Source of the DNA: Bacteroidales bacterium
GTDB taxonomy: Bacteria; Bacteroidota; Bacteroidia; Bacteroidales; JAIORY01
DNA: 36,369 bases
Direction: 5' to 3'
NCBI GenBank assembly: GCA_030630005.1
Contig: DAOVNY010000001.1
Span: 1-36,369 of the forward strand
Positions 1,555 to 12,820 of this stretch are shown here, piece after piece; the stretch's first letter is position 1, and each line of letters starts with the position of its first letter. A program made the translations under genes and the position numbers. The notes below the pieces were generated by a model. That model was given only the letters and a program-made list of their open reading frames with translations. It was not told where the DNA came from and did no database searches.

Positions 1555-4500
1555 ATGGCATTTTTCCAAAACTCAGTAATTAATAAACATCTCAAAGCAT
1601 TAGATAATGAAGTTGTAAAAGCTGCTTATGCTAAGTTTAAAGACTATTTTCACAATCCTGAAATACAAAAAAATATACGTGAAGCCAAAGAAGAGCAATT
1701 TCAGGAAGGTTTTTTAAGAGAACTTTTTGTAAAAATCTTGGGATACACACTAAACCCACAACCAAACTACAACCTTACTACCGAGCTTAAAAACGAAAAG
1801 GGAGCAAAAAAAACAGACGGAGCTATTTTACATGATGGCAAAGCTTTAGCAGTTATAGAATTGAAAGGAACCGATACAAAAGACCTGGATAAAATAAATG
1901 CTCAGGCTTTTAACTATAAAAACAACCAAACGGGCTGTATTTATGTTATCACTTCCAATTTTGAAAAGCTGCGTTTTTTTATTCACAACTCCGTTGACCA
2001 TGTAGAATTTAATCTGTTTACACTTACCGAACAGGAATTTGAATTGCTTTGGTTGTGCTTGAGTGCTGACAGTTTGTTAGGTGGTATTCCGCTAAAAGTT
2101 AAAGAAGAAAGTTTATTAGCAGAAGAAAACATTACCAAGCAACTGTATAAAGATTATTCTACCTTTAAAACTGACTTATGGCAAAACATGGTAAAAAACA
2201 GTCCTGAGGCTGACCAATTGTTGCTATTTAAGAAAACCCAAAAACTCTTAGACCGTTTTCTGTTCATCTTTTTTGCCGAAGATAGCGGTTTGTTGCCTCC
2301 AAATTCAATTTCACGAATTGTAAAGCGATGGAATGTTTTGCAAGAAGAAGATGCATATAAACCTTTATACAATATCTTTAAACAGTATTTTGGCTACATC
2401 AATACCGGAAGAAAAGGCAAAAGCTTTCAAGACGATATTTTTGCCTACAACGGTGGATTGTTTTTTCCAGATGAAGTTTTGGACAATATCTTAATTGATG
2501 ATGATGTTTTGCACTTGCATGTAATGAAACTAACGGCTTACGATTTTCAAAGTGATATAGATGTAAATATTCTGGGACATATATTTGAAAATTCTCTAAA
2601 CGAAATTGAAAATGTAATTGCCAGATTAGAAGGAAAAGAAGTTGACAAAAATAAAACAAAGCGAAAAAAAGACGGAGTTTTTTATACTCCAAAATACATT
2701 ACCAAATACATAGTTGAAAATACAGTTGGTAAACTTTGTGAAGAAAAGAAAGCCAAATTAGGTGTTGTAGATGAAGAATATGCTAAAGGTCGGCAAAACC
2801 GCAAAAAAGAAACCCTTAAGAAATTGGATAAAAGTCTGCAAGCATATCGTGAGTGGTTGTTAAAAATTACCATTTGCGACCCTGCTTGCGGTAGTGGAGC
2901 TTTTTTGAATCAGGCTTTAGAGTTTTTAATTACCGAGCACGCCTATATTGATGAATTACAAGCTCAACTCATTGGGGCAAGTATTGTATTTCAGGATGTA
3001 AGTAACCATATTTTAGAGAAAAATATTTTTGGTGTTGATATTAATGAAGAAAGCGTAGATATAGCCAAACTCTCTTTATGGCTGCGAACCGCACAAAAAG
3101 GAAGAAAACTTACCACCTTGAATAATAACCTCAAATGTGGCAACTCATTAATTGATGATGCGGCTGTGGCAGGGGAGAAAGCTTTTATCTGGCAAAAGGA
3201 GTTTCCTCAGATTTTTAAAGAAAAAGATAAAAAGGCATGGCATGTGGTATTTGCTATTCATAATTCACGTTATGTGAAATTTACCGACGGGTTAACCCGT
3301 CGGTTTAATCGGTTTGAACCCGGCTTTATTGCTTATACATATCCGAAATTAAACTTACATGAGGAAGAAATACTTGCAGACTGTTTGAATGAAGTTGTAA
3401 AAGAAAAGCAATTAAATATTTTAGCTTGTAATATTTGTGAAGATCATGTGCATGCAATAATTGTATGCGACAAAGAAGAACTTGAAAAAAACATTGGGCA
3501 ATGGAAAGGTCGCACTGCCTACCTGTATAACAGACGGGTTAACCCGTCTATAGATGATCAGCAGCCTGAATATGCCGATGGCACAAAGCAAAAACTTTGG
3601 GCAAAAAGTTTTCACCCTGTGGAAATTACGAATGATACCCAAATGCAAAACACTTTGCATTATATCAAAAACAACCGAGGAAAACATGAACTGCCTGCAC
3701 CAACCGACGGGTTAACCCGTCGGTTGAAAGAGATGACCTGCACACCCGAACACGCCTTCCGAACCGAATATAAAGGCGGTTTTGATGTGGTGATTGGAAA
3801 TCCGCCGTATGTACAGGAACAAATAAAAGATATACACAAGTCCTATTATCAGAATAATTATAAGACTATTGAAGGAAAACCAGATTTATATAGGATATTT
3901 ATTGAAAAAGGATTGAATTTAATTCACAAAGAGGGTTGCTTTTCATTCATCACTCCAAATTCATTCTTGACAATACCATCAGCGAATAAACTTAGGGAAT
4001 TGATCAAACAAGAATCAACTCTTAAAAAGATAATTAATTTTGAAGGAATGGTATTTGAAACAGCAAATATCAATACCGTGATATTTGTAATTAACAAACC
4101 ACAGAAAAAAATACCAGTAATAATTACAAATGACATTTCTACTTCACCCACTCCTGACAGCTTAGCTAACTCACTTAGTAAAAGTTTTGAGTTAAATTAT
4201 GAAGATTATATGAATGAATCTTCTATAAATGTAGAATTCAATAACCCTTTAGAAAAAAGCATTATTAAAAAACTTCACAGTTGTTCATGTAAATTGGCTG
4301 ATATTGCCGAATATACTCTTGGCCTACAGGTGTATCATAACACCATGCATAACAAAGATCAGATTAAGAATAGAATTTATCATAACATATCTAAGATCGA
4401 TAATAGTTACATTCCCGAAATAGGAGGCAGAAACATAGAAAGATATGGATTAGATGATAATTTCAAAGAATTTGTTTCTTATGGTGAATGGTGCTATAAT

Positions 4501-5136
4501 AAACCAGATCCTCGTTTTATTAGCGATAAGAGAATTTTAATAAGGGAAATACCCGGTCCTAATCATTTGATATGTACAATGTTTACAAAAGAAGGAATAC
4601 CTAATAAAGCCATAATAATCGTCCGATCAGATAAAGAAAATCAATATTCAATTTTAGGTGTTTTAAATTCAAGACTTATAGGTTATTACATTCACAAAAC
4701 TACAGAGAAAGGTAAGCAGAAATTATTTCCTCGAATTTCTCTTACATCCATAAAAAATCTGCCAATGCCCACAAAATTTAATAAGCAAATTGAAATAAAG
4801 GTTAGTAATATAATGTCGAAGAAAGAAGTTTTAACTAACTTGTTAACTAATTTTTTAAAGCTCTTAATATCAAGAGCCAATCTCGATAAACCTTCTAATA
4901 AGCTGAAACGATGGAATGAATTGGATTTTAAAGAGTTTTTAAAAGAATTAAAAAAAGCCAAAGTACAACTTAGCTTACCGGAAGAAGCAGAGTGGATGCA
5001 ATACTTTAACGAACAGAAACAAAAAGCACAAGAAATTAAATCAGAAATTGAGAAAACCGACAAAGAAATAGACCAAATGGTTTATGAGTTGTATGGGTTG
5101 ACGGAGGAGGAGATTGGAATAGTGGAGAAAAATTAG
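1555..5136 (+). CDS. Type IIG restriction-modification enzyme (Eco57I/MmeI-like fused PD-(D/E)XK nuclease + gamma-class N6-adenine methyltransferase + TaqI_C-like specificity domain) carrying a nested HUH transposase-like domain
   Basis: N-terminal D88..E102-L-K104 (TDGAIL..VIELKG) nuclease motif. FYTP. SAM motif I D442-PACGSGAF. Motif IV N749-PPY preceded by GGFDVVIG. C-terminal part LNSRLIGYY..KLFPRISLTSIKNLP resembles a TaqI_C-type TRD. Tail ends YELYGLTEEEI. About 180 extra codons sit between motif III and motif IV (see the mobile_element feature). Confidence 0.85.
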   Translation: MAFFQNSVINKHLKALDNEVVKAAYAKFKDYFHNPEIQKNIREAKEEQFQEGFLRELFVKILGYTLNPQPNYNLTTELKNEKGAKKTDGAILHDGKALAVIELKGTDTKDLDKINAQAFNYKNNQTGCIYVITSNFEKLRFFIHNSVDHVEFNLFTLTEQEFELLWLCLSADSLLGGIPLKVKEESLLAEENITKQLYKDYSTFKTDLWQNMVKNSPEADQLLLFKKTQKLLDRFLFIFFAEDSGLLPPNSISRIVKRWNVLQEEDAYKPLYNIFKQYFGYINTGRKGKSFQDDIFAYNGGLFFPDEVLDNILIDDDVLHLHVMKLTAYDFQSDIDVNILGHIFENSLNEIENVIARLEGKEVDKNKTKRKKDGVFYTPKYITKYIVENTVGKLCEEKKAKLGVVDEEYAKGRQNRKKETLKKLDKSLQAYREWLLKITICDPACGSGAFLNQALEFLITEHAYIDELQAQLIGASIVFQDVSNHILEKNIFGVDINEESVDIAKLSLWLRTAQKGRKLTTLNNNLKCGNSLIDDAAVAGEKAFIWQKEFPQIFKEKDKKAWHVVFAIHNSRYVKFTDGLTRRFNRFEPGFIAYTYPKLNLHEEEILADCLNEVVKEKQLNILACNICEDHVHAIIVCDKEELEKNIGQWKGRTAYLYNRRVNPSIDDQQPEYADGTKQKLWAKSFHPVEITNDTQMQNTLHYIKNNRGKHELPAPTDGLTRRLKEMTCTPEHAFRTEYKGGFDVVIGNPPYVQEQIKDIHKSYYQNNYKTIEGKPDLYRIFIEKGLNLIHKEGCFSFITPNSFLTIPSANKLRELIKQESTLKKIINFEGMVFETANINTVIFVINKPQKKIPVIITNDISTSPTPDSLANSLSKSFELNYEDYMNESSINVEFNNPLEKSIIKKLHSCSCKLADIAEYTLGLQVYHNTMHNKDQIKNRIYHNISKIDNSYIPEIGGRNIERYGLDDNFKEFVSYGEWCYNKPDPRFISDKRILIREIPGPNHLICTMFTKEGIPNKAIIIVRSDKENQYSILGVLNSRLIGYYIHKTTEKGKQKLFPRISLTSIKNLPMPTKFNKQIEIKVSNIMSKKEVLTNLLTNFLKLLISRANLDKPSNKLKRWNELDFKEFLKELKKAKVQLSLPEEAEWMQYFNEQKQKAQEIKSEIEKTDKEIDQMVYELYGLTEEEIGIVEKN
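3283..3305. repeat. Palindrome copy 1: ACCGACGGGTTAACCCGTCGGT(T), a 22-nt perfect palindrome
   Basis: It is self-complementary by direct reading and translated as TDGLTRR. It is identical over 23 nt to the copy at 3703-3725. Confidence 0.95.
3532..3549. repeat. Palindrome copy 2: AGACGGGTTAACCCGTCT, an 18-nt perfect palindrome
   Basis: It shares the 16-nt core GACGGGTTAACCCGTC with copies 1 and 3. It is read in a different frame (RRVNPS). Confidence 0.95.
3703..3725. repeat. Palindrome copy 3: ACCGACGGGTTAACCCGTCGGT(T)
   Basis: This is a 23-nt direct repeat of 3283-3305, offset by exactly 420 nt (140 codons), and again translated as TDGLTRR. Confidence 0.95.
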
Positions 5137-5290: not shown

Positions 5291-5322
5291 AATATCTTTA
5301 ACGCCCTATTATATTTTGCTTA

Positions 5323-5372
5323 TATATTATAATACAATATAGAAATATATTATATTATAATATTGTATAATA
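5323..5372. promoter_or_regulatory. AT-rich direct/inverted repeat block; candidate operator (C-box-like) for the XRE gene
   Basis: TATATTATAATA occurs at 5323-5334 and 5351-5362. ATACAATAT (5332-5340) is the reverse complement of ATATTGTAT (5360-5368). The block lies between the candidate promoter box and the HTH gene. Confidence 0.3.
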
Positions 5373-5461: not shown

Positions 5462-5677
5462 ATGTCTGATAAGCAGCATATTAATCGAATCAAAGAAGTG
5501 TTGAAAGAGCAAGGAAGAACCCAGACTTGGTTAACTGAAAAAATTGACAAAAGCTATGTTGTTGTAACAAATTACTGTAATAATAATACACAACCGAGTG
5601 TACTTGTTTTAACGAAAATAGCAAAAATATTAGATGTGGATATTAGAGAATTATTAGTACCGACAAAATATTATTAG
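5462..5677 (+). CDS. XRE-family helix-turn-helix regulator (probable R-M controller/C-protein)
   Basis: 71 aa with an HTH_3-like pattern (RIKEVLKEQGRTQTWLTEKIDKSYVVVTNYCNN..PSVLVLTKIAKILDVDIRELL). It is the first gene of a tightly packed R-M operon, 5 nt before vsr. Confidence 0.75.
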   Translation: MSDKQHINRIKEVLKEQGRTQTWLTEKIDKSYVVVTNYCNNNTQPSVLVLTKIAKILDVDIRELLVPTKYY

Positions 5678-5682
5678 ACCAA

Positions 5683-6099
5683 ATGGTTGATGTCCACACA
5701 AAAGAAACGAGAAGTTACAATATGAGCCGGATCAAAGGTAAGGATACAAAACCAGAGATATTGGTTAGAAAGTTCTTGTTTTCTCAGGGATTTAGATATC
5801 GGTTGCATGATAAAAAATTACCGGGAAAGCCGGATTTAGTTTTTCCTAAGTACAAGAAAGTTGTATTTATACACGGTTGTTACTGGCATGGACATGAAGG
5901 ATGTAAATATTTCGTTCCACCCAAAACAAGAACAGAATGGTGGATGGATAAGATTAATGATAATAAAACAAGAGACGAAAAAAATATAGCAGAACTAAAA
6001 AAGAATATGTGGTATCCTATTATTATTTGGGAATGTGAATTAAAACCTGAAAAAAGAGAAAAAACTCTGAAAGCTTTGGTTAGAAAATTGAAAAAATAA
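5683..6099 (+). CDS. vsr: Very short patch repair endonuclease Vsr
   Basis: RSYNMSRIKGKDTKPE..GFRYRLH..LPGKPDLVFPKYKKVVFIHGCYWHGH matches the Vsr signature. Its stop codon abuts the dcm ATG. Confidence 0.92.
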   Translation: MVDVHTKETRSYNMSRIKGKDTKPEILVRKFLFSQGFRYRLHDKKLPGKPDLVFPKYKKVVFIHGCYWHGHEGCKYFVPPKTRTEWWMDKINDNKTRDEKNIAELKKNMWYPIIIWECELKPEKREKTLKALVRKLKK

Positions 6100-7332
6100 A
6101 TGAGTGATATTAAGTACATAGATTTATTTGCCGGTGCCGGTGGCTTGTCAGAAGGATTCATCAGGCAAGGATATAAACCAGTTGCTCATGTAGAATATGA
6201 TAAAGCCGCTTGCTTTACATTAAAAACCAGAGTTGCATTTCATTATCTGGTTAAATCTGGCAGAGAAGATATTTATTATTCATATCTGAAAGGTGAAATC
6301 AGCAGGGAAAAATTGTACGCTTGTGTCCCCCGCGAATTATTGGATACTGTAATCAATGCTGAAATAGGAAAAGAAAACCTGAATATCTTCAAAGCAATAG
6401 ATAATACTTTAAAAGGGGAAAAGGTAGATTTAATTATAGGAGGACCGCCTTGTCAGGCATATTCAATTGTTGGTCGTGCTCCACTTAAACACAAGAAGAA
6501 TGATGAACGTACAAAGCTTTATATTCAGTATGGTAGATTTTTGAAGAAATACCAACCCAAACTGTTTATATTTGAAAATGTTCCGGGAATCCTTTCTGCT
6601 GCTAAAGGTATGTACTTTAAAAATCTTCAGAAATATTATAAGCAATTAGGTTATCAGGTAAAGGCCAGATTACTCAATTCTTATGACTATGGAGTTATCC
6701 AGAACCGGAAGAGAATTATAATTATTGGTTGGCAAAAAGACTTTGAATTTTTATATCCTGAAATACAATCTGCAAAAAACAAGTATTTCAGAGATGAGAT
6801 ATTTTCGGATTTACCAGCAATTGAACCGGGAGAATCAAAAAGAGTACAGAAATATACAGCTAACACAAATGACTATTTAAGCCAAACATTTATTAGAAAT
6901 GGAGTTGATTTTGTTACCCAACATATAACAAGACCTCACAACAAAAAGGATTTAAGTATTTATAAATTAGCCATTGAACGACTTGAAAAAGGTAAGCAAC
7001 TAAAGAACAATCAAATTCCTGATAGTATGAGAACGCAAAAGAATACAACTGATTTTCTTGATCGTTTCAAAGTTGTTGACAAAGAACCTCACACATTAAT
7101 TGCACATATTGCAAAAGACGGACATCATTTTATTCATCCTGACAAAAAGCAGCTACGATCTATTTCTGTGAGGGAAGCTGCAAGAATTCAGTCATTTCCG
7201 GATGGCTACTATTTTGAAGGAATTAAAGAAAATCAACCAAGAACAGCAGCTTTCAGGCAAATTGGAAATGCTGTTCCTCCATTGATGGCTGAAAGAATAG
7301 CTGATAAAATAAAAGAGTTTTGGCATGAATAA
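6100..7332 (+). CDS. dcm: DNA (cytosine-5)-methyltransferase
   Basis: Motif I DLFAGAGGLSEGF; IV GGPPC118QAYS; VI ENVPG; VIII QNRKRIIIIG; IX RSISVREAARIQSFPD; X QIGNAVPPLMA. Confidence 0.95.
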   Translation: MSDIKYIDLFAGAGGLSEGFIRQGYKPVAHVEYDKAACFTLKTRVAFHYLVKSGREDIYYSYLKGEISREKLYACVPRELLDTVINAEIGKENLNIFKAIDNTLKGEKVDLIIGGPPCQAYSIVGRAPLKHKKNDERTKLYIQYGRFLKKYQPKLFIFENVPGILSAAKGMYFKNLQKYYKQLGYQVKARLLNSYDYGVIQNRKRIIIIGWQKDFEFLYPEIQSAKNKYFRDEIFSDLPAIEPGESKRVQKYTANTNDYLSQTFIRNGVDFVTQHITRPHNKKDLSIYKLAIERLEKGKQLKNNQIPDSMRTQKNTTDFLDRFKVVDKEPHTLIAHIAKDGHHFIHPDKKQLRSISVREAARIQSFPDGYYFEGIKENQPRTAAFRQIGNAVPPLMAERIADKIKEFWHE

Positions 7333-9706
7333 AAATATAGAAAGTGTAATATCATTGGAAGTAGAAAAGAATTCCAATTTAGAATTTTCTTTCCAAGAAT
7401 TATTGGACAGTTCAACTTTAAAAATACTCAGACCTCCATCTTATGGCAGTTTATCTATTTATGATAATGTAATTAGTTATGAGCCAAAACCTAATTATAC
7501 AGGAGAGGACTTTTTTACTTACACCAATGAAAAAGAGTTAAGGGGGATTATTGCTCTCACCATAAAAGATACCGTATTTAACCCAAGAGCAAGACTTCTA
7601 ATTCAGCTTGGAAATCAGTTAATTAAAAACGAAAGTATTGCACTAATTGAACTTGCTAAAAATTCTTTCGATGCGGATGCAAGTTATTGCAACGTAACTT
7701 TGAAGCATGTGGAAGATAAAAATTCGGGTATAATTATGGTGGAGGATAATGGTTTTGGAATGGATATAAAAACTGTTAAAGATGTTTGGCTTGAGCCAGG
7801 AAGCGATAATAAGCAAATCCTAGTTAAGAAAAAGGAGGTTACGCCAAAATATAAAAGACTACCAATTGGAGAAAAAGGTATTGGTCGGTTTGGAGTTCAT
7901 AAGTTAGGTAAGAAAATTGAAATGGTTTCCCGAGCGAAAGGAAGCAAAGAAGTTGTTGTTAGAATAGATTGGGAGAAATTTAAAAAATTTAAGTACTTAA
8001 ATGAAGCCCCTGTTGAAGTGTTAGAAAGAGAACCTAAAACTTTTACTGCTGATGCTACTGGAACAAAGATTACTATAAGTAAGCTCACAAAAAACTGGAC
8101 TAAAGGAATGACAAGGGATGTTTTTCGTGCGCTTAATGGAATTTCCACACCTCCTACCTATGATATAGAAGATATTATTAATCCTGACTTGTTTTCAAAA
8201 TTACAAAAAAATAAAATCGATAGTTTTGAAGCTAATCTTTTAACAGATAGATCTGATTGGATTAAAAATATTCCTTCATGGAATAAAATACTTGAATATT
8301 CTTTGTTCTTTTTTGATATAGAAATTGATAATGACAAAATTACAAGTTTTAAATACAAATTCAAACCATGGGATAGATTTAGTGGAATTGAAGGGAGAGA
8401 AATAACCCACAAAGATTTACCTATTAAAGATTTGCTTGATATTTCAGATCCAACAAAAAGAAAGTTCGTTCCGTTGACTTTTGAAGGATTGAAAATAGGT
8501 AAGTTTCAGTTTAAAGGTTGTGTTTTCATTCGTGATCGTTTCGTTTTTAAACTTTTTAACATTCAGCAAACATCACTTACTGGTTATTTGGATAATAACG
8601 GAGGTATTAGAGTATATCGAAACGGAGTGAGGGTTTATGACTACGGTGAAAGGGAAAATGACTGGTTAGCTCTTGATTATAGGAGGTTCAATGACCCTGG
8701 AGTTAGATTGAGTAATAATCTAATGCTAGCTTCTATAAATCTTAGTAGAGAGAATAGTTCTGATCTTATTGAAAAAACTAACAGGGAAGGTTTTATTGAT
8801 AATGATGCTTATAACGTATTCAAAAAACAAATTACTTATTCGTTAAAGCTAATCGAATTATTAAGGTTAGAGGATAAGCGAAAAATTGATAATAAATACA
8901 AACCCAGGAAAGACACTGAACCAGTTCTCAAATCAATTGAAGGATTAAGATCTCTGGTAAGTGAAAAAGTTAAGGATAAGAAAATTCAAAAAGAGTTAAA
9001 GGTATACGTAGATCGTATCGAGAAGAATTACCGTTTTATGAATGATACATTGATGAAGACTGCTAGTGCAGGATTAGGATGGAGTGTATATATTCACGAA
9101 ATAGAGAAGATTATTGCTGAGATAATTAAGGTTCTTGAAAGGGATAAAGCGTCTGAACGAATAATGAAATTAACGGCTCATTTATCTGAACTAATTGAAA
9201 GCTATGCACAGATTTTAAGGCGTACAACAAGGAGTAGTCAAACTTTGTCCAAGGTTGTTGATCAGGCATTGTTTAATGTTGAATATCGCTTAAATGCGCA
9301 CGGTGTTAAAATTGAACGTCCTGATCTACAAAGAAGTTCGGTTAAAGTTTCTGTAGCCAGAAACCTTTTGGTTTCAAACATTATGAACATAATTGATAAT
9401 TCGATTTATTGGCTAGATAGGTCTCAAAAGAAAAACAAAATAATTCGATTCGACATTGCAGAAATTGAAGTAGGATATATTTCTCTGGTAATCTCAGATA
9501 ATGGAACAGGTTTCTCACTATCACCGGAACAAATGAAAGAGCCATTTGTTTCTGCAAAACCTGGGGGAATGGGTTTAGGACTCCATATTGTTTCAGAAGT
9601 AATGGCAAGTCATAAAGGGAAAGTTACATTTAATGAGGATGGCAATTATGAAGTGCCGAAAGGTTTTGTTGATGGAGCAACAGTAATACTAAATTTTAAA
9701 ATTTAG
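7325..9706 (+). CDS. Dual GHKL-ATPase protein: N-terminal Hsp90/MORC-type ATPase + DHp-like H-box + C-terminal histidine-kinase-type catalytic domain
   Basis: The start overlaps the dcm stop by 8 nt. N-terminal GHKL: ELAKN113SFDADA, VED141NGFGMD, GEKGIGRFG (182-190). H-box-like GLGWSVYIH591EIEKII. C-terminal CA: NIIDN692SIYW, SD725NGTGF, G747GMGLGLHIV. aa ~35-80 resemble an Ig/cadherin-like stub (GSLSIYDNVISYEPKPNYTGEDFFTYT). Confidence 0.7.
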   Translation: MNKNIESVISLEVEKNSNLEFSFQELLDSSTLKILRPPSYGSLSIYDNVISYEPKPNYTGEDFFTYTNEKELRGIIALTIKDTVFNPRARLLIQLGNQLIKNESIALIELAKNSFDADASYCNVTLKHVEDKNSGIIMVEDNGFGMDIKTVKDVWLEPGSDNKQILVKKKEVTPKYKRLPIGEKGIGRFGVHKLGKKIEMVSRAKGSKEVVVRIDWEKFKKFKYLNEAPVEVLEREPKTFTADATGTKITISKLTKNWTKGMTRDVFRALNGISTPPTYDIEDIINPDLFSKLQKNKIDSFEANLLTDRSDWIKNIPSWNKILEYSLFFFDIEIDNDKITSFKYKFKPWDRFSGIEGREITHKDLPIKDLLDISDPTKRKFVPLTFEGLKIGKFQFKGCVFIRDRFVFKLFNIQQTSLTGYLDNNGGIRVYRNGVRVYDYGERENDWLALDYRRFNDPGVRLSNNLMLASINLSRENSSDLIEKTNREGFIDNDAYNVFKKQITYSLKLIELLRLEDKRKIDNKYKPRKDTEPVLKSIEGLRSLVSEKVKDKKIQKELKVYVDRIEKNYRFMNDTLMKTASAGLGWSVYIHEIEKIIAEIIKVLERDKASERIMKLTAHLSELIESYAQILRRTTRSSQTLSKVVDQALFNVEYRLNAHGVKIERPDLQRSSVKVSVARNLLVSNIMNIIDNSIYWLDRSQKKNKIIRFDIAEIEVGYISLVISDNGTGFSLSPEQMKEPFVSAKPGGMGLGLHIVSEVMASHKGKVTFNEDGNYEVPKGFVDGATVILNFKI

Positions 9707-9709
9707 CAT

Positions 9710-11116
9710 ATGATTATACCAAAAAATGGGCGAGTGGTAATATTAGATGACAAAAAGGAACAGGCTTTTCCATTAATTAATATTTTGTCAAAAAATAAAA
9801 TTCCTTTTACTTATCATTCTGATGACATAGAACTTTTGCCAGATGTGGATCAGCAATATGATGATATTAGACTTCTATTTTTGGATGTAAATCTTTCAGC
9901 TGATGGAACACCAAAAGAAACCATAAAATCACAATTACAGTCTACGCTACAAAGAATTATTAAACCGGGGACTCCGTATATAGCAGCAATATGGAGTTTG
10001 AAAGAAAATGAATATGAAGACCTATTAAATGATCTATTTCAAAATCGCATTCCGGAAATTCAGCCCTTACTAAGAATATCATTGACTAAAAATGATTTTT
10101 TCGATTTGGTAAAATTTGATGAAGGAAAAGAAAATGAAAGATATGAATATGTTGAATGTGATGTAATTATGGATAAGCTAAACAGTAAGATTTTCGAATC
10201 CTTAAATCAATTAGATGCTTTGGAACCATTGATTAAATGGGAAAATATTATTCAAAATTCAATTTCTTCTGTTATTAGTGACATAATTGAAATCTCAAAA
10301 AAAGACCTGAATAACAATCTTAAAAAAATTTATTACAAGTTAGCTCAAGCATACTGGGGTAAACAACTTAAATCAAAAAGTGACAGTGAAATAACTCAGA
10401 AAGCTCTGCAGAGTTTAAATAACATTTTGATAGATAAAATTGAAAGCGATCTAAGAAACAAAGGTGATTTTGCATTAATTAATTGTGTCAATTACCCTGT
10501 CGAATTTGATATTAATTTTACAGCAATATTAAATTGTAAATTGTTGCTATCAATTGATAATTCAACTGAAATAGTTCCTGGTAATTTATATCAAATTGAT
10601 AATGACGATGTAAAAAAGAAAATCATTGAAGATGCTGTAGATCGAAGTCGTTTCATAAAAGATTATTCTCATGAAAATGGATTTAATCATGAAGATGTCA
10701 TTGATAAAGAAGGAAAGATAATAGAAAAACATAAGAAGTCATTTCAGAAATTTTCATTTAGACAAATACCCAAACTTATTGAAAGGGTGAAGTATATTGA
10801 AATAGAATTAACACCTATATGCGATTTTTCACAAAATAACTGGGTGCAAAACCGAATTTTGCCTGGAGTTTTAATATGTGAAAATGATGTAAAGTATTTG
10901 AAAAGTAATACTGATTATTTCTATTTATCACCAAGTATTATGTACGATGATATAATAGTCAGAATAATGCTTGATTTTAGGTTTTTGAAAGCAGAACCTT
11001 TTGAAAAATTCAAAGGTGTACAATCTATTTTTCGTCTAAAGCACTTAATATTTTCCGATATTCAATCTCAGCTTTCAAGGCATATAAATAGGCCGGGGGT
11101 AGTTTATGTAAATTAA
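9710..11116 (+). CDS. Receiver (CheY-like REC) domain protein with an uncharacterised ~330-aa C-terminal domain
   Basis: It starts 3 nt after the upstream stop. RVVILD13D14, IRLLFLD59VNLSADG, YIAAIWS96 and LRISLTK127 reproduce the spacing of the CheY D12/D13/D57/T87/K109 residues. I recognise no motif in the rest of the protein. Confidence 0.5.
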   Translation: MIIPKNGRVVILDDKKEQAFPLINILSKNKIPFTYHSDDIELLPDVDQQYDDIRLLFLDVNLSADGTPKETIKSQLQSTLQRIIKPGTPYIAAIWSLKENEYEDLLNDLFQNRIPEIQPLLRISLTKNDFFDLVKFDEGKENERYEYVECDVIMDKLNSKIFESLNQLDALEPLIKWENIIQNSISSVISDIIEISKKDLNNNLKKIYYKLAQAYWGKQLKSKSDSEITQKALQSLNNILIDKIESDLRNKGDFALINCVNYPVEFDINFTAILNCKLLLSIDNSTEIVPGNLYQIDNDDVKKKIIEDAVDRSRFIKDYSHENGFNHEDVIDKEGKIIEKHKKSFQKFSFRQIPKLIERVKYIEIELTPICDFSQNNWVQNRILPGVLICENDVKYLKSNTDYFYLSPSIMYDDIIVRIMLDFRFLKAEPFEKFKGVQSIFRLKHLIFSDIQSQLSRHINRPGVVYVN

Positions 11117-11886
11117 TGATGGCAAAAAATAATTGGACAAAGAAAGAACATATTGTTGCATTCAATCTTTATTGTAAGATTCCATTCACTAAGATAAATG
11201 CAACTTATCCTCCTGTCAAAGAATTGGCTAAAATAATAGGCCGTTCAAACGGCTCTGTAGCCATGAAACTTGCCAATTTTGCAAGGCTTGATCCGGCTTT
11301 AAAAGCAAGAGATGTTTCTGGTTTAACACAAGGTGCAAAGGGAGAAGAAGTAGTTTGGGCTGAATTCAATGGAAACTGGGAGGAACTTGCTTGGCAAAGT
11401 GAAAAAATATTGGCTAGTTACAAAAATGAACCTATTGAGGTAACAACTGAAATTATTACAGATGATTTACCATCGGAAGGAAAAGAAAAAGAAGCAGTTG
11501 TTAAAACAAGAGTTAACCAATCATTTTTCAGAAAGACAATTCTGGCATCATATAATTACAGTTGTTGTATAACCGGTATTTCAATTCAGGAATTGCTTAT
11601 TGCAAGCCATATTATTCCATGGTCAGTGAATAAAGAAAGTAGAATGAATCCATCAAACGGTCTTTGTCTTAATTCACTCCACGACAAAGCATTTGATAAA
11701 GGATTGATAACAGTTACTCCTGACTACCGAATTAAATTATCAGAAGTTATTTTACATAATCGAAATACAGAAACTTCAGGATTCTTTTTACCATATGAAA
11801 ATAAACCTATTAGACTTCCGCAAAAGTTCTATCCGGAAAAGGAATTTCTCAAATGGCACAATAAAAATGTTTTCATTGACTCATAA
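11116..11886 (+). CDS. HNH endonuclease (HNH_2 / COG3183-type predicted restriction endonuclease)
   Basis: TAATG overlap with the upstream gene. The N-terminal region RSNGSVAMKLANFARLDP is typical of COG3183. The C-terminal region is QSFFRKTILASYNYSCCITG..LLIASH165IIPW..N181GLCLNSLH189DKAFDKGLI. Confidence 0.8.
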   Translation: MMAKNNWTKKEHIVAFNLYCKIPFTKINATYPPVKELAKIIGRSNGSVAMKLANFARLDPALKARDVSGLTQGAKGEEVVWAEFNGNWEELAWQSEKILASYKNEPIEVTTEIITDDLPSEGKEKEAVVKTRVNQSFFRKTILASYNYSCCITGISIQELLIASHIIPWSVNKESRMNPSNGLCLNSLHDKAFDKGLITVTPDYRIKLSEVILHNRNTETSGFFLPYENKPIRLPQKFYPEKEFLKWHNKNVFIDS

Positions 11887-11980: not shown

Positions 11981-12820
11981 ATGTCTTTAAAAATTGCCAT
12001 TGCATACGATTTTGACGGTACACTGTCGCCAGGCAATATGCAGGAACATTCATTTATTCCCAAACTAAGAATTAATAAAGATGCTTTTTGGAAGAAGGCA
12101 AATGCCAAAGCAAAGCAACAAGATATGGACGAAGTACTGGCATATATGCAACTAATGCTTCAAAAAGCCGATGAAAAAAATATTCCTATCACAAAAAAAG
12201 CTTTTTTTGATCATGGCAAAGAAATAGTTTTTTTTGAAGGTGTTTATAACTTTTTTAACAGGATAAATAAGTACGCAGCAGAAAGAAATGTCAAAATCGA
12301 ACATTATATAATTTCTTCGGGCATTAGAGATATTATTAAAGGAACATCCATAGCAAAATTTTTTACAAATATTTTTGCTTCCGGCTTTGTGTTTGATGCA
12401 AACGATGTGGCGGTATGGCCGGCTCTGGCAATCAATTATACTAATAAAACCCAATATCTTTTCAGAATAAATAAAGGAATTAATAATTCTTATGATAATA
12501 CTAAAATCAACAAATTTGTAGAGTACGACAAACGACCAATACCTTTTTCGCGTATGATTTACATCGGCGATGGAGAAACTGATGTGCCTGCTATGAAAAT
12601 GATAAAATATCGTGGCGGCACTGCAATTGCTGTTTACGATCCCAAAAAAGAAAAGAAAAATGATAAATTATCACCTAAACAAATCTGCGAAAAACTAATC
12701 GAACAACAACGGGCAGATTTTATAGCTTCTGCTGATTATACTAAAAATTCTAAGCTTGATAATATTATTAAAACTTTGATAAATAAAATTGTTGAAGAGG
12801 AAAAACTTAAGCTTTTTTAA
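11981..12820 (+). CDS. HAD-superfamily hydrolase/phosphatase
   Basis: Motif I AYDFDGTLS; motif II IISSG; motif IV YIGDGETDVPAM. Confidence 0.75.
   Translation: MSLKIAIAYDFDGTLSPGNMQEHSFIPKLRINKDAFWKKANAKAKQQDMDEVLAYMQLMLQKADEKNIPITKKAFFDHGKEIVFFEGVYNFFNRINKYAAERNVKIEHYIISSGIRDIIKGTSIAKFFTNIFASGFVFDANDVAVWPALAINYTNKTQYLFRINKGINNSYDNTKINKFVEYDKRPIPFSRMIYIGDGETDVPAMKMIKYRGGTAIAVYDPKKEKKNDKLSPKQICEKLIEQQRADFIASADYTKNSKLDNIIKTLINKIVEEEKLKLF

Follow-up and report, generated by a model that had tools for sequence, protein, structure and literature searches.

A C5-methylase-linked operon of a Bacteroidales bacterium encodes a kinase-like and receiver-like protein pair: a candidate phosphorelay in a restriction-modification-type setting

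In a 36,369-nucleotide (nt) stretch of Bacteroidales DNA (assembly GCA_030630005.1, contig DAOVNY010000001.1, positions 1 to 36,369; hereafter the window), an operon at 5462-11886 begins like a restriction-modification (R-M) system and continues with genes for a protein carrying two GHKL domains (P4), a receiver-like protein (P5) and an HNH_2 nuclease (P6). Do these six genes make up one system, and is its would-be restriction half run by phosphoryl transfer? The first part can be answered plainly: the methyltransferase, with Vsr and the helix-turn-helix (HTH) controller, P4 and P5 form a conserved, translationally coupled unit. For the second part the favoured explanation, to which we give a little less than an even chance, is an R-M-type defence operon whose 'restriction half' would be run by a cytoplasmic His-Asp phosphorelay, a mechanism that is deduced from sequence.

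Six plus-strand open reading frames (ORFs) span 5462-11886, and when their coordinates were rechecked these and the spacings of 5, 0, -8, 3 and -1 nt proved exactly as an earlier note on this DNA had claimed. Overlapping stop and start codons join genes of the operon, and one upstream region precedes all six. The first three genes bear out that note's reading of a controller, Vsr and C5-methyltransferase set. They encode a controller-like HTH protein of XRE/Cro-C1 type (5462-5677, 71 amino acids (aa); Pfam HTH_3 9.7e-10), a Vsr very-short-patch repair endonuclease (5683-6099, 138 aa; Pfam Vsr 1.1e-36, TIGR00632 4.9e-42, above cut-off) and a C5 cytosine DNA methyltransferase (6100-7332, 410 aa; DNA_methylase PF00145 9.8e-66, TIGR00675 1.3e-55). 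By its family, Vsr would here repair deaminated 5-methylcytosine (5mC). These genes are followed by P4 (7325-9706, 793 aa; Pfam HATPase_c_3 and HATPase_c), P5 (9710-11116, 468 aa; assigned from fold, profile-profile match and conservation) and P6 (11116-11886, 256 aa; Pfam HNH_2 5.7e-14).

Related loci were found with a P4 alignment, one genome per GTDB species being scanned. For the neighbourhood sample, 89 loci were fetched, ORFs were called and our own profiles were applied, and 85 loci remained after removal of duplicates. A P5 homolog lies directly downstream of P4 in 77 of 78 loci, and the gene immediately before P4 encodes a C5-methylase in 60 of 78, such a methylase being present within 6 kb in 68 of 78. 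Of 58 related loci, 35 have a Vsr gene no more than 6 kb away. Only 10 of 71 loci have a full-length P6-type HNH gene after P5; the other 61 have none there. Thus, the core is methylase + P4 + P5, and Vsr, controller and HNH are exchangeable accessories. C-like genes are seen at some related loci only (L013, L036 and L065, with HTH_3 genes in L008 and L096). The earlier note had suggested that the kinase-receiver pair could license the HNH nuclease, which by these counts cannot be the core logic; its question whether the 793/468/256-aa trio is a conserved neighbourhood is answered in the affirmative for P4 and P5, but not for the nuclease.

The gene arrangement is far beyond chance and recurs in dozens of unrelated genomes. 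P4 relatives number in the thousands, and the locus is present in at least 554 GTDB species, among them members of Bacteroidota, Bacillota, Pseudomonadota, Planctomycetota, Chloroflexota, Nitrospirota, Nitrosopumilaceae and Methanoregulaceae; the proteins are annotated merely as 'ATP-binding protein' or 'sensor histidine kinase'. For P5, an exhaustive HMMER search gave 1940 representative clusters of relatives at E ≤ 0.001 and 783 at E ≤ 1e-30, figures that supersede the 25 relatives returned by a word-indexed search.

Among the related loci, two carry a HhH-GPD DNA glycosylase gene after the module (L001, 11179-11787; L002, 10361-11023), and no Vsr gene was called in L002; this enzyme may serve as an alternative accessory, repairing the T:G mismatches that deamination of 5mC leaves. 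A Cenarchaeum metagenome-assembled genome (OY282369.1, ~2665-2688 kb; L049/L054) carries at least five P4-like genes one after another, with P5-like ORFs behind several of them, and no methylase was detected near this archaeal-symbiont array of kinase/receiver pairs. A tblastn search of plasmids found divergent HATPase_c_3 + HATPase_c kinases in Agrobacterium, Acinetobacter, Hymenobacter and Enterobacter (L090, L091, L092 and L097). Each of these kinase genes is followed by a gene for an unannotated protein of 357-637 aa, some having Vsr-Dcm upstream and some being without a methylase. These divergent pairs point to a much larger superfamily of kinase/receiver-like pairs. In the Agrobacterium plasmid locus (L090), a stand-alone EcoRII-N gene adjoins another GHKL gene and an HNH gene.

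In P4, Pfam places HATPase_c_3 at aa 105-247 (2.9e-16) and HATPase_c (PF02518) at aa 684-772 (2.2e-14), and numerous NCBIfam sensor-kinase models match aa ~600-770. From the N-terminus, the protein is read as an Ig-like extension (aa 1-85, window 7325-7579; Big_9/cadherin-like, 3.8e-4), a paraMORC-type GHKL ATPase with intact motifs (aa ~90-260; HATPase_c_3), a conserved middle module (aa ~420-495) presumed to be an S5-like transducer by analogy with Iyer et al. 2008, a putative DHp hairpin with candidate phospho-acceptor His591 (9047-9244, aa ~575-640; from conservation), and a histidine-kinase-type catalytic ATP-binding domain (aa ~680-793; HATPase_c, hhalign). Conservation was counted over 85 non-redundant homologs. 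Residues E109, N113, D141xGxG145 and G182-R188 of the N-terminal ATPase, plus K484 of the middle module, are kept in 83-85 of them. In the C-terminal half, H591 and N692 are invariant (85/85), E592 and K595 are each kept in 82, D725 and G727 in 83, and the G2 box, G748-x-G750-x-G752, in 83-85. H591, N692 and D725 had been singled out in the earlier note and are conserved, whereas its G747 for the start of the G2 box was off by one. Judged by these motifs, both ATP sites of P4 are intact, and the N, G1 and G2 boxes of kinase type are present.

Comparison of P4 with HK853/EnvZ/PhoR by hhalign gave a probability of 97.6% over aa 610-770, corresponding to DHp helix 2 and the catalytic domain. H591-E592 stands ~14 residues ahead of the predicted hairpin turn, and H591 is supported as a candidate phospho-acceptor. 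The kinase-like call made earlier is thus upheld by HATPase_c and hhalign, but not by HisKA-type Pfam models, and the H-box helix stays unaligned.

Most P4 relatives are without the Ig-like extension, and some have EcoRII-N in its place; homologs P0119, P0135 and P0144 carry such a fusion. At locus L008 (6782-10601) an EcoRII-C gene lies between the methylase and an EcoRII-N-P4 fusion, so that EcoRII looks split. The fusions and the split EcoRII point to P4 reading unmethylated sites. The Ig-like extension itself, on a cytoplasmic ATPase, is common to a subgroup of ~780-800-aa P4 homologs only.

The N-terminal part of P5 is a receiver (REC)-like domain (9710-10114, aa 1-135), as judged from AlphaFold2, Foldseek, hhalign and conservation. 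It was modelled from a 25-sequence alignment as a (beta-alpha)5 fold with a predicted local distance difference test (pLDDT) score of 87.9, in which D13/D14, D59, S96 and K127 fall at the C-terminal ends of strands b1, b3, b4 and b5. In the PDB, the Foldseek matches to this region were nearly all response-regulator receivers (FixJ, RcsB, PhoB, Spo0F), with probabilities mostly 0.8-0.99 and E from 2e-3 to 4e-2. A small REC alignment, composed of receiver sequences plus AbrC of the Ambrosia system discussed below, matched P5 in hhalign (85% probability, E 6.7e-6), pairing D13/D14, D59 and S96 with CheY D12/D13, D57 and T87; no significant match was obtained with CheY alone or AbrC alone. Among 83 homologs, D59 is kept in all, D13 and S/T96 in 80 each and K127 in 81, and position 14 is D, N or E. 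Sequence and model agree on a predicted receiver at the P5 N-terminus, with the acidic pocket, the Ser/Thr and the Lys kept. The CheY-like pattern of D13, D14, D59, S96 and K127 proposed earlier is upheld in fold, register and conservation, though not by a match to PF00072.

The remainder of P5 (10157-11116, aa 150-468) is presumed to be an effector or adaptor output domain. Modelled separately (AlphaFold2 pLDDT 91.6), it appears as a four-helix bundle plus a beta-rich module. Its conserved residues are E178, N275, G291, C371-D372, R382, R461 and G463, and the polar invariants are equally kept with or without a downstream HNH gene. Foldseek searches of PDB and BFVD returned nothing below E 0.05, in line with the earlier description of a second domain of no known family; a resemblance to MazF (E 0.27, TM 0.47) was too weak to use. 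No HTH-like or winged-helix match was found for the domain in PDB, BFVD or Pfam. P5 has no match in Pfam, NCBIfam, PADLOC-DB 2.0 or PHROGs, a PDB sequence search with the P5 profile was also empty, and 68 P5 relatives are without a Pfam match. As P5 is the only candidate output in loci that have no HNH gene, its C-terminal domain is taken as the conserved output.

P6 combines an HNH_2 domain (aa 150-200; Pfam 5.7e-14), in which H165, N181 and H189 are read from the sequence, with a conserved N-terminal domain (aa 1-113) that has no known family match; the earlier call of an HNH_2 nuclease with H165 stands. Its full-length PADLOC matches are HNH PDLC04132 (2.4e-91) and PDLC03546, named 'Type II restriction enzyme' (1.7e-43). 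The HNH domain aligns with PDB 6yex (1e-15), its closest solved relative, which we take to be the modification-dependent enzyme VcaM4I. The best NCBIfam match is a modified-DNA (phosphorothioate)-dependent endonuclease, over the C-terminal part only, and no modified-base reader was matched by aa 1-113 in Pfam or in comparison with PDB. P6 thus resembles HNH_2 restriction endonucleases in its full-length PADLOC matches and in a catalytic core that aligns to 6yex, but its N-terminal domain differs from that of 6yex, and the close homologs sampled occur in kinase-receiver operons and not in two-gene R-M pairs. All four close homologs sampled (65-74% identical, from unrelated complete genomes) belong to (Vsr)-(HTH)-Dcm-GHKL/kinase-REC-like-HNH operons, and none of the four adjoins the methylase, a GHKL-kinase gene and a REC-like gene standing in front of each.

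In three of these loci, from Sinomicrobium, Chryseobacterium and Algoriphagus (L093, L094, L095), the P6-type HNH_2 gene comes after kinases that are remote from P4 (profile E 1e-56 to 1e-61). The kinase partners there are proteins of 369-382 aa whose N-terminus is receiver-like on reading, and the P5 profile fails to detect them. As the kinases are distant from P4 in three of the four P6 loci, the HNH module is common to several kinase/receiver lineages. In L093-L095 conservation is far higher in the nuclease than in its partners, and the nuclease has apparently been exchanged between lineages.

The earlier note could match the gene set to no named system; however, the architecture has been described, and a named and validated analogue exists. 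Bellieny-Rabelo, Pretorius and Moleleki (2021; PMC8011034) surveyed soluble HATPase_c_3 + HEF_HK + HATPase_c proteins, 91.6% of the HEF_HK proteins having a divergent receiver protein (Response_reg_2) linked to them. [quoted passage not shown] The P4/P5 pairs share with these a soluble kinase of HATPase_c_3, His-Glu/Asp DHp and HATPase_c, an adjacent receiver without any other known domain, and the neighbourhood (C5-methylase 60/78, Vsr 35/58 and HNH_2 10/71 here). They differ in length: HEF_HK kinases have 930-1030 aa, with the H-box near residue 750-830 (Table S3 of the preprint of PMC8011034), against 700-800 aa in the P4 family. Pfam HEF_HK (PF19191) has no match at E ≤ 10 in P4 aa 526-692, nor in 10 relatives, and the model was confirmed to be in the Pfam library used by its weak match to an Acinetobacter relative. 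Response_reg_2 (PF19192), a model whose presence in the Pfam copy was unconfirmed, matched neither P5, its 68 relatives nor the other REC-like partners. No 970-aa HEF_HK member was among the matches of the plasmid tblastn search. Given the longer kinases and the failing models of HEF_HK as well as Response_reg_2, the P4/P5 family is treated as a sister lineage of the HEF_HK/Response_reg_2 pairs, and by sequence it looks like one, with the same architecture.

The analogue is Ambrosia, a five-gene Pseudomonas system (AbrR-AbrA-AbrB-AbrC-AbrD) that blocks phages (preprint, bioRxiv 10.1101/2025.09.30.679545), comprising an XRE regulator, the N6-methylase AbrA, the HATPase AbrB, the receiver AbrC and the HNH protein AbrD. 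Substitutions AbrB N40A, AbrC D60A and AbrD H60A each abolish phage defence, and defence proceeds without host toxicity; the system was reported from Gammaproteobacteria only. Reporters replacing abrA or abrD were induced on infection, and the authors favour transcriptional control (10.1101/2025.09.30.679545). With sequences taken from Table S1 of that preprint, P4 was found to be homologous to AbrB (BLASTP 8e-28, 24% identity, aa 80-492 against the first 399 aa of AbrB). Gene logic and order are alike (regulator, methyltransferase, HATPase_c_3 + HATPase_c, receiver, HNH), an XRE/HipB-type regulator standing first in the cluster with a likeness to AbrR by domain type only, and the receiver Asp is D59 in P5 and D60 in AbrC. 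However, the methylase here is of C5 type and accompanied by Vsr, whereas that of Ambrosia is N6-adenine-specific. AbrC is a canonical Response_reg protein of 209 aa, whereas P5 has 468 aa with a large extra domain and no detectable relation to AbrC (hhalign probability 0.3%). AbrD is a PtuB-like HNH/HNH_4 protein, and P6 is HNH_2 without BLASTP similarity to it. The P4/P5 family is spread across many phyla and archaea, unlike the gammaproteobacterial Ambrosia.

Other known systems are further removed. Detocs, with the kinase DtcA, the stand-alone buffer receiver DtcB and the receiver-effector DtcC (mostly a PNP ATP-nucleosidase), is likewise a two-component phosphorelay used as anti-phage defence in which an enzymatic effector replaces DNA-binding output. 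Unlike the present operon, it is without a methylase or a GHKL/MORC sensor, and the operon has neither a DtcB-like second receiver gene nor a PNP domain. The difference from Detocs is as claimed earlier, except that DtcB is a stand-alone receiver and not the Hpt protein it was taken for. The view of GHKL/MORC ATPases as R-M partners agrees with Iyer, Abhiman and Aravind 2008, who had found GHKL proteins of paraMORC type associated with genes for cytosine methylases, Vsr and HNH. P4 shares with those ATPases an N-terminal GHKL domain with intact motifs and a conserved downstream module, but the 2008 survey mentions neither the kinase C-terminal half nor a receiver partner ('receiver' occurs 0 times). 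The BbrUII/HgiDII family model NF050001 matches P4 partially (3.2e-21, aa 92-261 only), at 75.5 bits against a cut-off of 550. Type II R-M systems with controller and Vsr are similar in that methyltransferase, controller and Vsr are all present.

In the favoured explanation, P4 would be a dimeric MORC-like DNA clamp whose N-terminal ATPase detects DNA without the methylation mark, aided in some relatives by the fused EcoRII-N DNA-binding domain. Detection of unmarked DNA would turn on the C-terminal kinase module, His591 would be autophosphorylated, and the phosphate would move to Asp59 of P5. Phospho-P5 would then activate its own conserved C-terminal domain and, in the HNH-bearing subtype, would also recruit or activate the co-translated P6, which would attack invading DNA. 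A post-translational relay is favoured because all residues of the phospho-chemistry are invariant, and because P5 has no HTH-like fold and is the only candidate output in 86% of loci. The model is supported by Ambrosia, an analogue that needs the receiver Asp, the GHKL Asn and the HNH His for defence.

Several points weigh against this explanation. Phosphotransfer, DNA binding and cleavage are all deduced from sequence. The H591 helix lies outside every significant kinase alignment (hhalign against HK853 alone or HK853/EnvZ/PhoR), and Pfam HisKA and HEF_HK give no match to P4 even at E ≤ 10. Because the H-box helix is unaligned and HisKA models are silent, the phospho-acceptor role of H591 rests on position and conservation, not on homology. 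Likewise, a threshold as loose as E ≤ 10 brings no match of Pfam Response_reg (PF00072) or Response_reg_2 to P5, and neither the two halves of P5 nor the P4 DHp region has a relevant Pfam match at that threshold; because the Pfam receiver models fail, the receiver call rests on fold, profile-profile match and conservation. The C-terminal domain of P5 has no recognisable nuclease fold in PDB or BFVD, and at residue 377 this locus has Asn where ~90% of relatives have Lys. As 86% of related loci are without any recognisable nuclease, it may be wrong to speak of 'restriction' in the case of the core. In Ambrosia, pre-methylation of phage by AbrA gave no protection, and the data point to transcriptional induction (10.1101/2025.09.30.679545).

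A further proposal concerns the core without nuclease, which could represent a new mode of epigenetic self/non-self discrimination, in which a MORC-like DNA clamp reads methylation and His-Asp transfer acts on an effector of unseen fold (P5 aa 150-468). The P5 domain could then be a nuclease of a new kind, or else act as a silencer or toxin without nucleolytic activity, and nucleases such as HNH and EcoRII-C would be accessories that plug in. We regard this as possible, if on balance rather doubtful.

Transcriptional gating, as proposed for Ambrosia, is an unlikely alternative to the favoured explanation. Here P4 would sense infection and phosphorylate P5, and P5 would be a DNA-binding response regulator inducing an operon (methylase, HNH) that is silenced by the HTH controller. 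The infection-induced abrA and abrD reporters and the loss of defence in AbrC D60A agree with this, as does the opening of the operon with an XRE-type HTH gene behind palindromic repeats. However, the 320-aa C-terminal domain of P5 gave no HTH or winged-helix match (PDB, BFVD, Pfam), P5 is unrelated to AbrC outside the receiver, and all six genes are translationally coupled behind a single upstream region. Moreover, 61 of 71 loci have no HNH to induce, and a pure regulator would therefore leave no effector.

It is improbable that the operon encodes an ATP-dependent restriction complex working without a phosphorelay, with the kinase-like and receiver-like domains as structural or ATPase modules of a MORC-clamp restriction enzyme that methylase, P4, P5 and HNH would make up together, akin to other R-M systems with a paraMORC protein. 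Invariance of H591-E592, D13, D59, S/T96, K127 and the kinase ATP lid across phyla is hard to explain without phosphoryl chemistry, and the Ambrosia analogue cannot do without its receiver Asp. On the other side, the partnership of GHKL ATPases with R-M systems is established (Iyer et al. 2008), the N-terminal GHKL domain of P4 resembles BbrUII/HgiDII (the partial NF050001 match at 3.2e-21; PADLOC REase_II 2.8e-10), and the HisKA and Response_reg models are all silent.

Methylation-dependent suicide, an abortive infection in which HNH_2 cuts the 5mC DNA made by its own methylase once the relay unleashes it on infection, is an idea also raised by the Ambrosia authors. The closest solved relative of the HNH_2 domain (6yex) and the modified-DNA-dependent endonuclease that best matches the C-terminal part of P6 in NCBIfam would suit it. 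We nevertheless consider it very unlikely: the N-terminal 113 aa of P6 match no known modified-base reader, the PADLOC model for a Type II restriction enzyme is matched along the whole of P6, Ambrosia defends without host toxicity, and most related operons have no HNH. Finally, the chance insertion of an unrelated two-component pair into an ordinary C-V-M + HNH type II R-M system, for which the classical C, Vsr and Dcm genes and the 1.7e-43 PADLOC match of P6 might speak, is hardly credible and is already contradicted by the neighbourhood data, as 60 of 78 loci have P4-P5 after the methylase whether or not HNH is present, 4 of 4 sampled close P6 homologs stand behind a GHKL-kinase and a REC-like gene, and overlapping stop and start codons join the genes.

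The region upstream of the operon contains two 23-nt AT-rich direct repeats, each palindromic inside, at 5322-5372 (repeat search; 18-nt arms 94% complementary), ~90-140 nt upstream of the HTH gene. They are a candidate C-box operator and promoter region, the evidence being weak because the sequence is of low complexity. Terminator and promoter scans gave counts no higher than in shuffled sequence, and the PADLOC Control_protein match to the 71-aa HTH protein is only 0.017.

The operon belongs to a small defence islet: upstream of it comes a type IIG R-M gene, downstream of it a HAD-like gene (PADLOC PDC-S34). The islet is flanked by the gene of a DEAD-box helicase and by gyrA, and neither a tRNA nor a break in composition was found at the islet in the window. 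The downstream gene, at 11981-12820 and 94 nt past the HNH gene, encodes a 279-aa HAD-IB-like hydrolase (PDC-S34 1.5e-117). It was rejected as a member of the operon, not being kept beside it in other genomes. The type IIG ORF (1193 aa, window 1555-5136) holds an in-frame insert of ~440 nt (3283-3724) between the methylase motifs FPQIF and GGFDVVIGNPPY. The insert encodes a Y1/HUH transposase-like domain (Pfam Y1_Tnp 1.2e-10; motifs HVHAII and LHYIKNN; NCBIfam REP-associated tyrosine transposase 1e-13). The 16-nt palindrome GACGGGTTAACCCGTC has three copies there (3286, 3533, 3706), with 0 expected, and is found nowhere else in the window; the outer copies grow to perfect 22-23-nt hairpins, and both translate as TDGLTRR. 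The sequence of the insert suggests a REP/RAYT- or IS200-like element across which the host reading frame stays open.

The operon described here is a widespread, uncharacterised form of a known R-M-linked kinase/receiver module, distinguished by C5-methylase and Vsr, a long receiver-effector and HNH_2. It is not a new class, because the concept was already in place with the survey of 2021 and the Ambrosia study of 2025, and its value lies in extension and mechanism. The family is large and has been missed by current annotation libraries. If the relay is true, these operons would couple self-recognition by DNA methylation to phosphorelay signalling, the C-terminal domain of P5 would be a new effector, and the family would offer a tractable bacterial model for MORC-type ATPases that read epigenetic marks.

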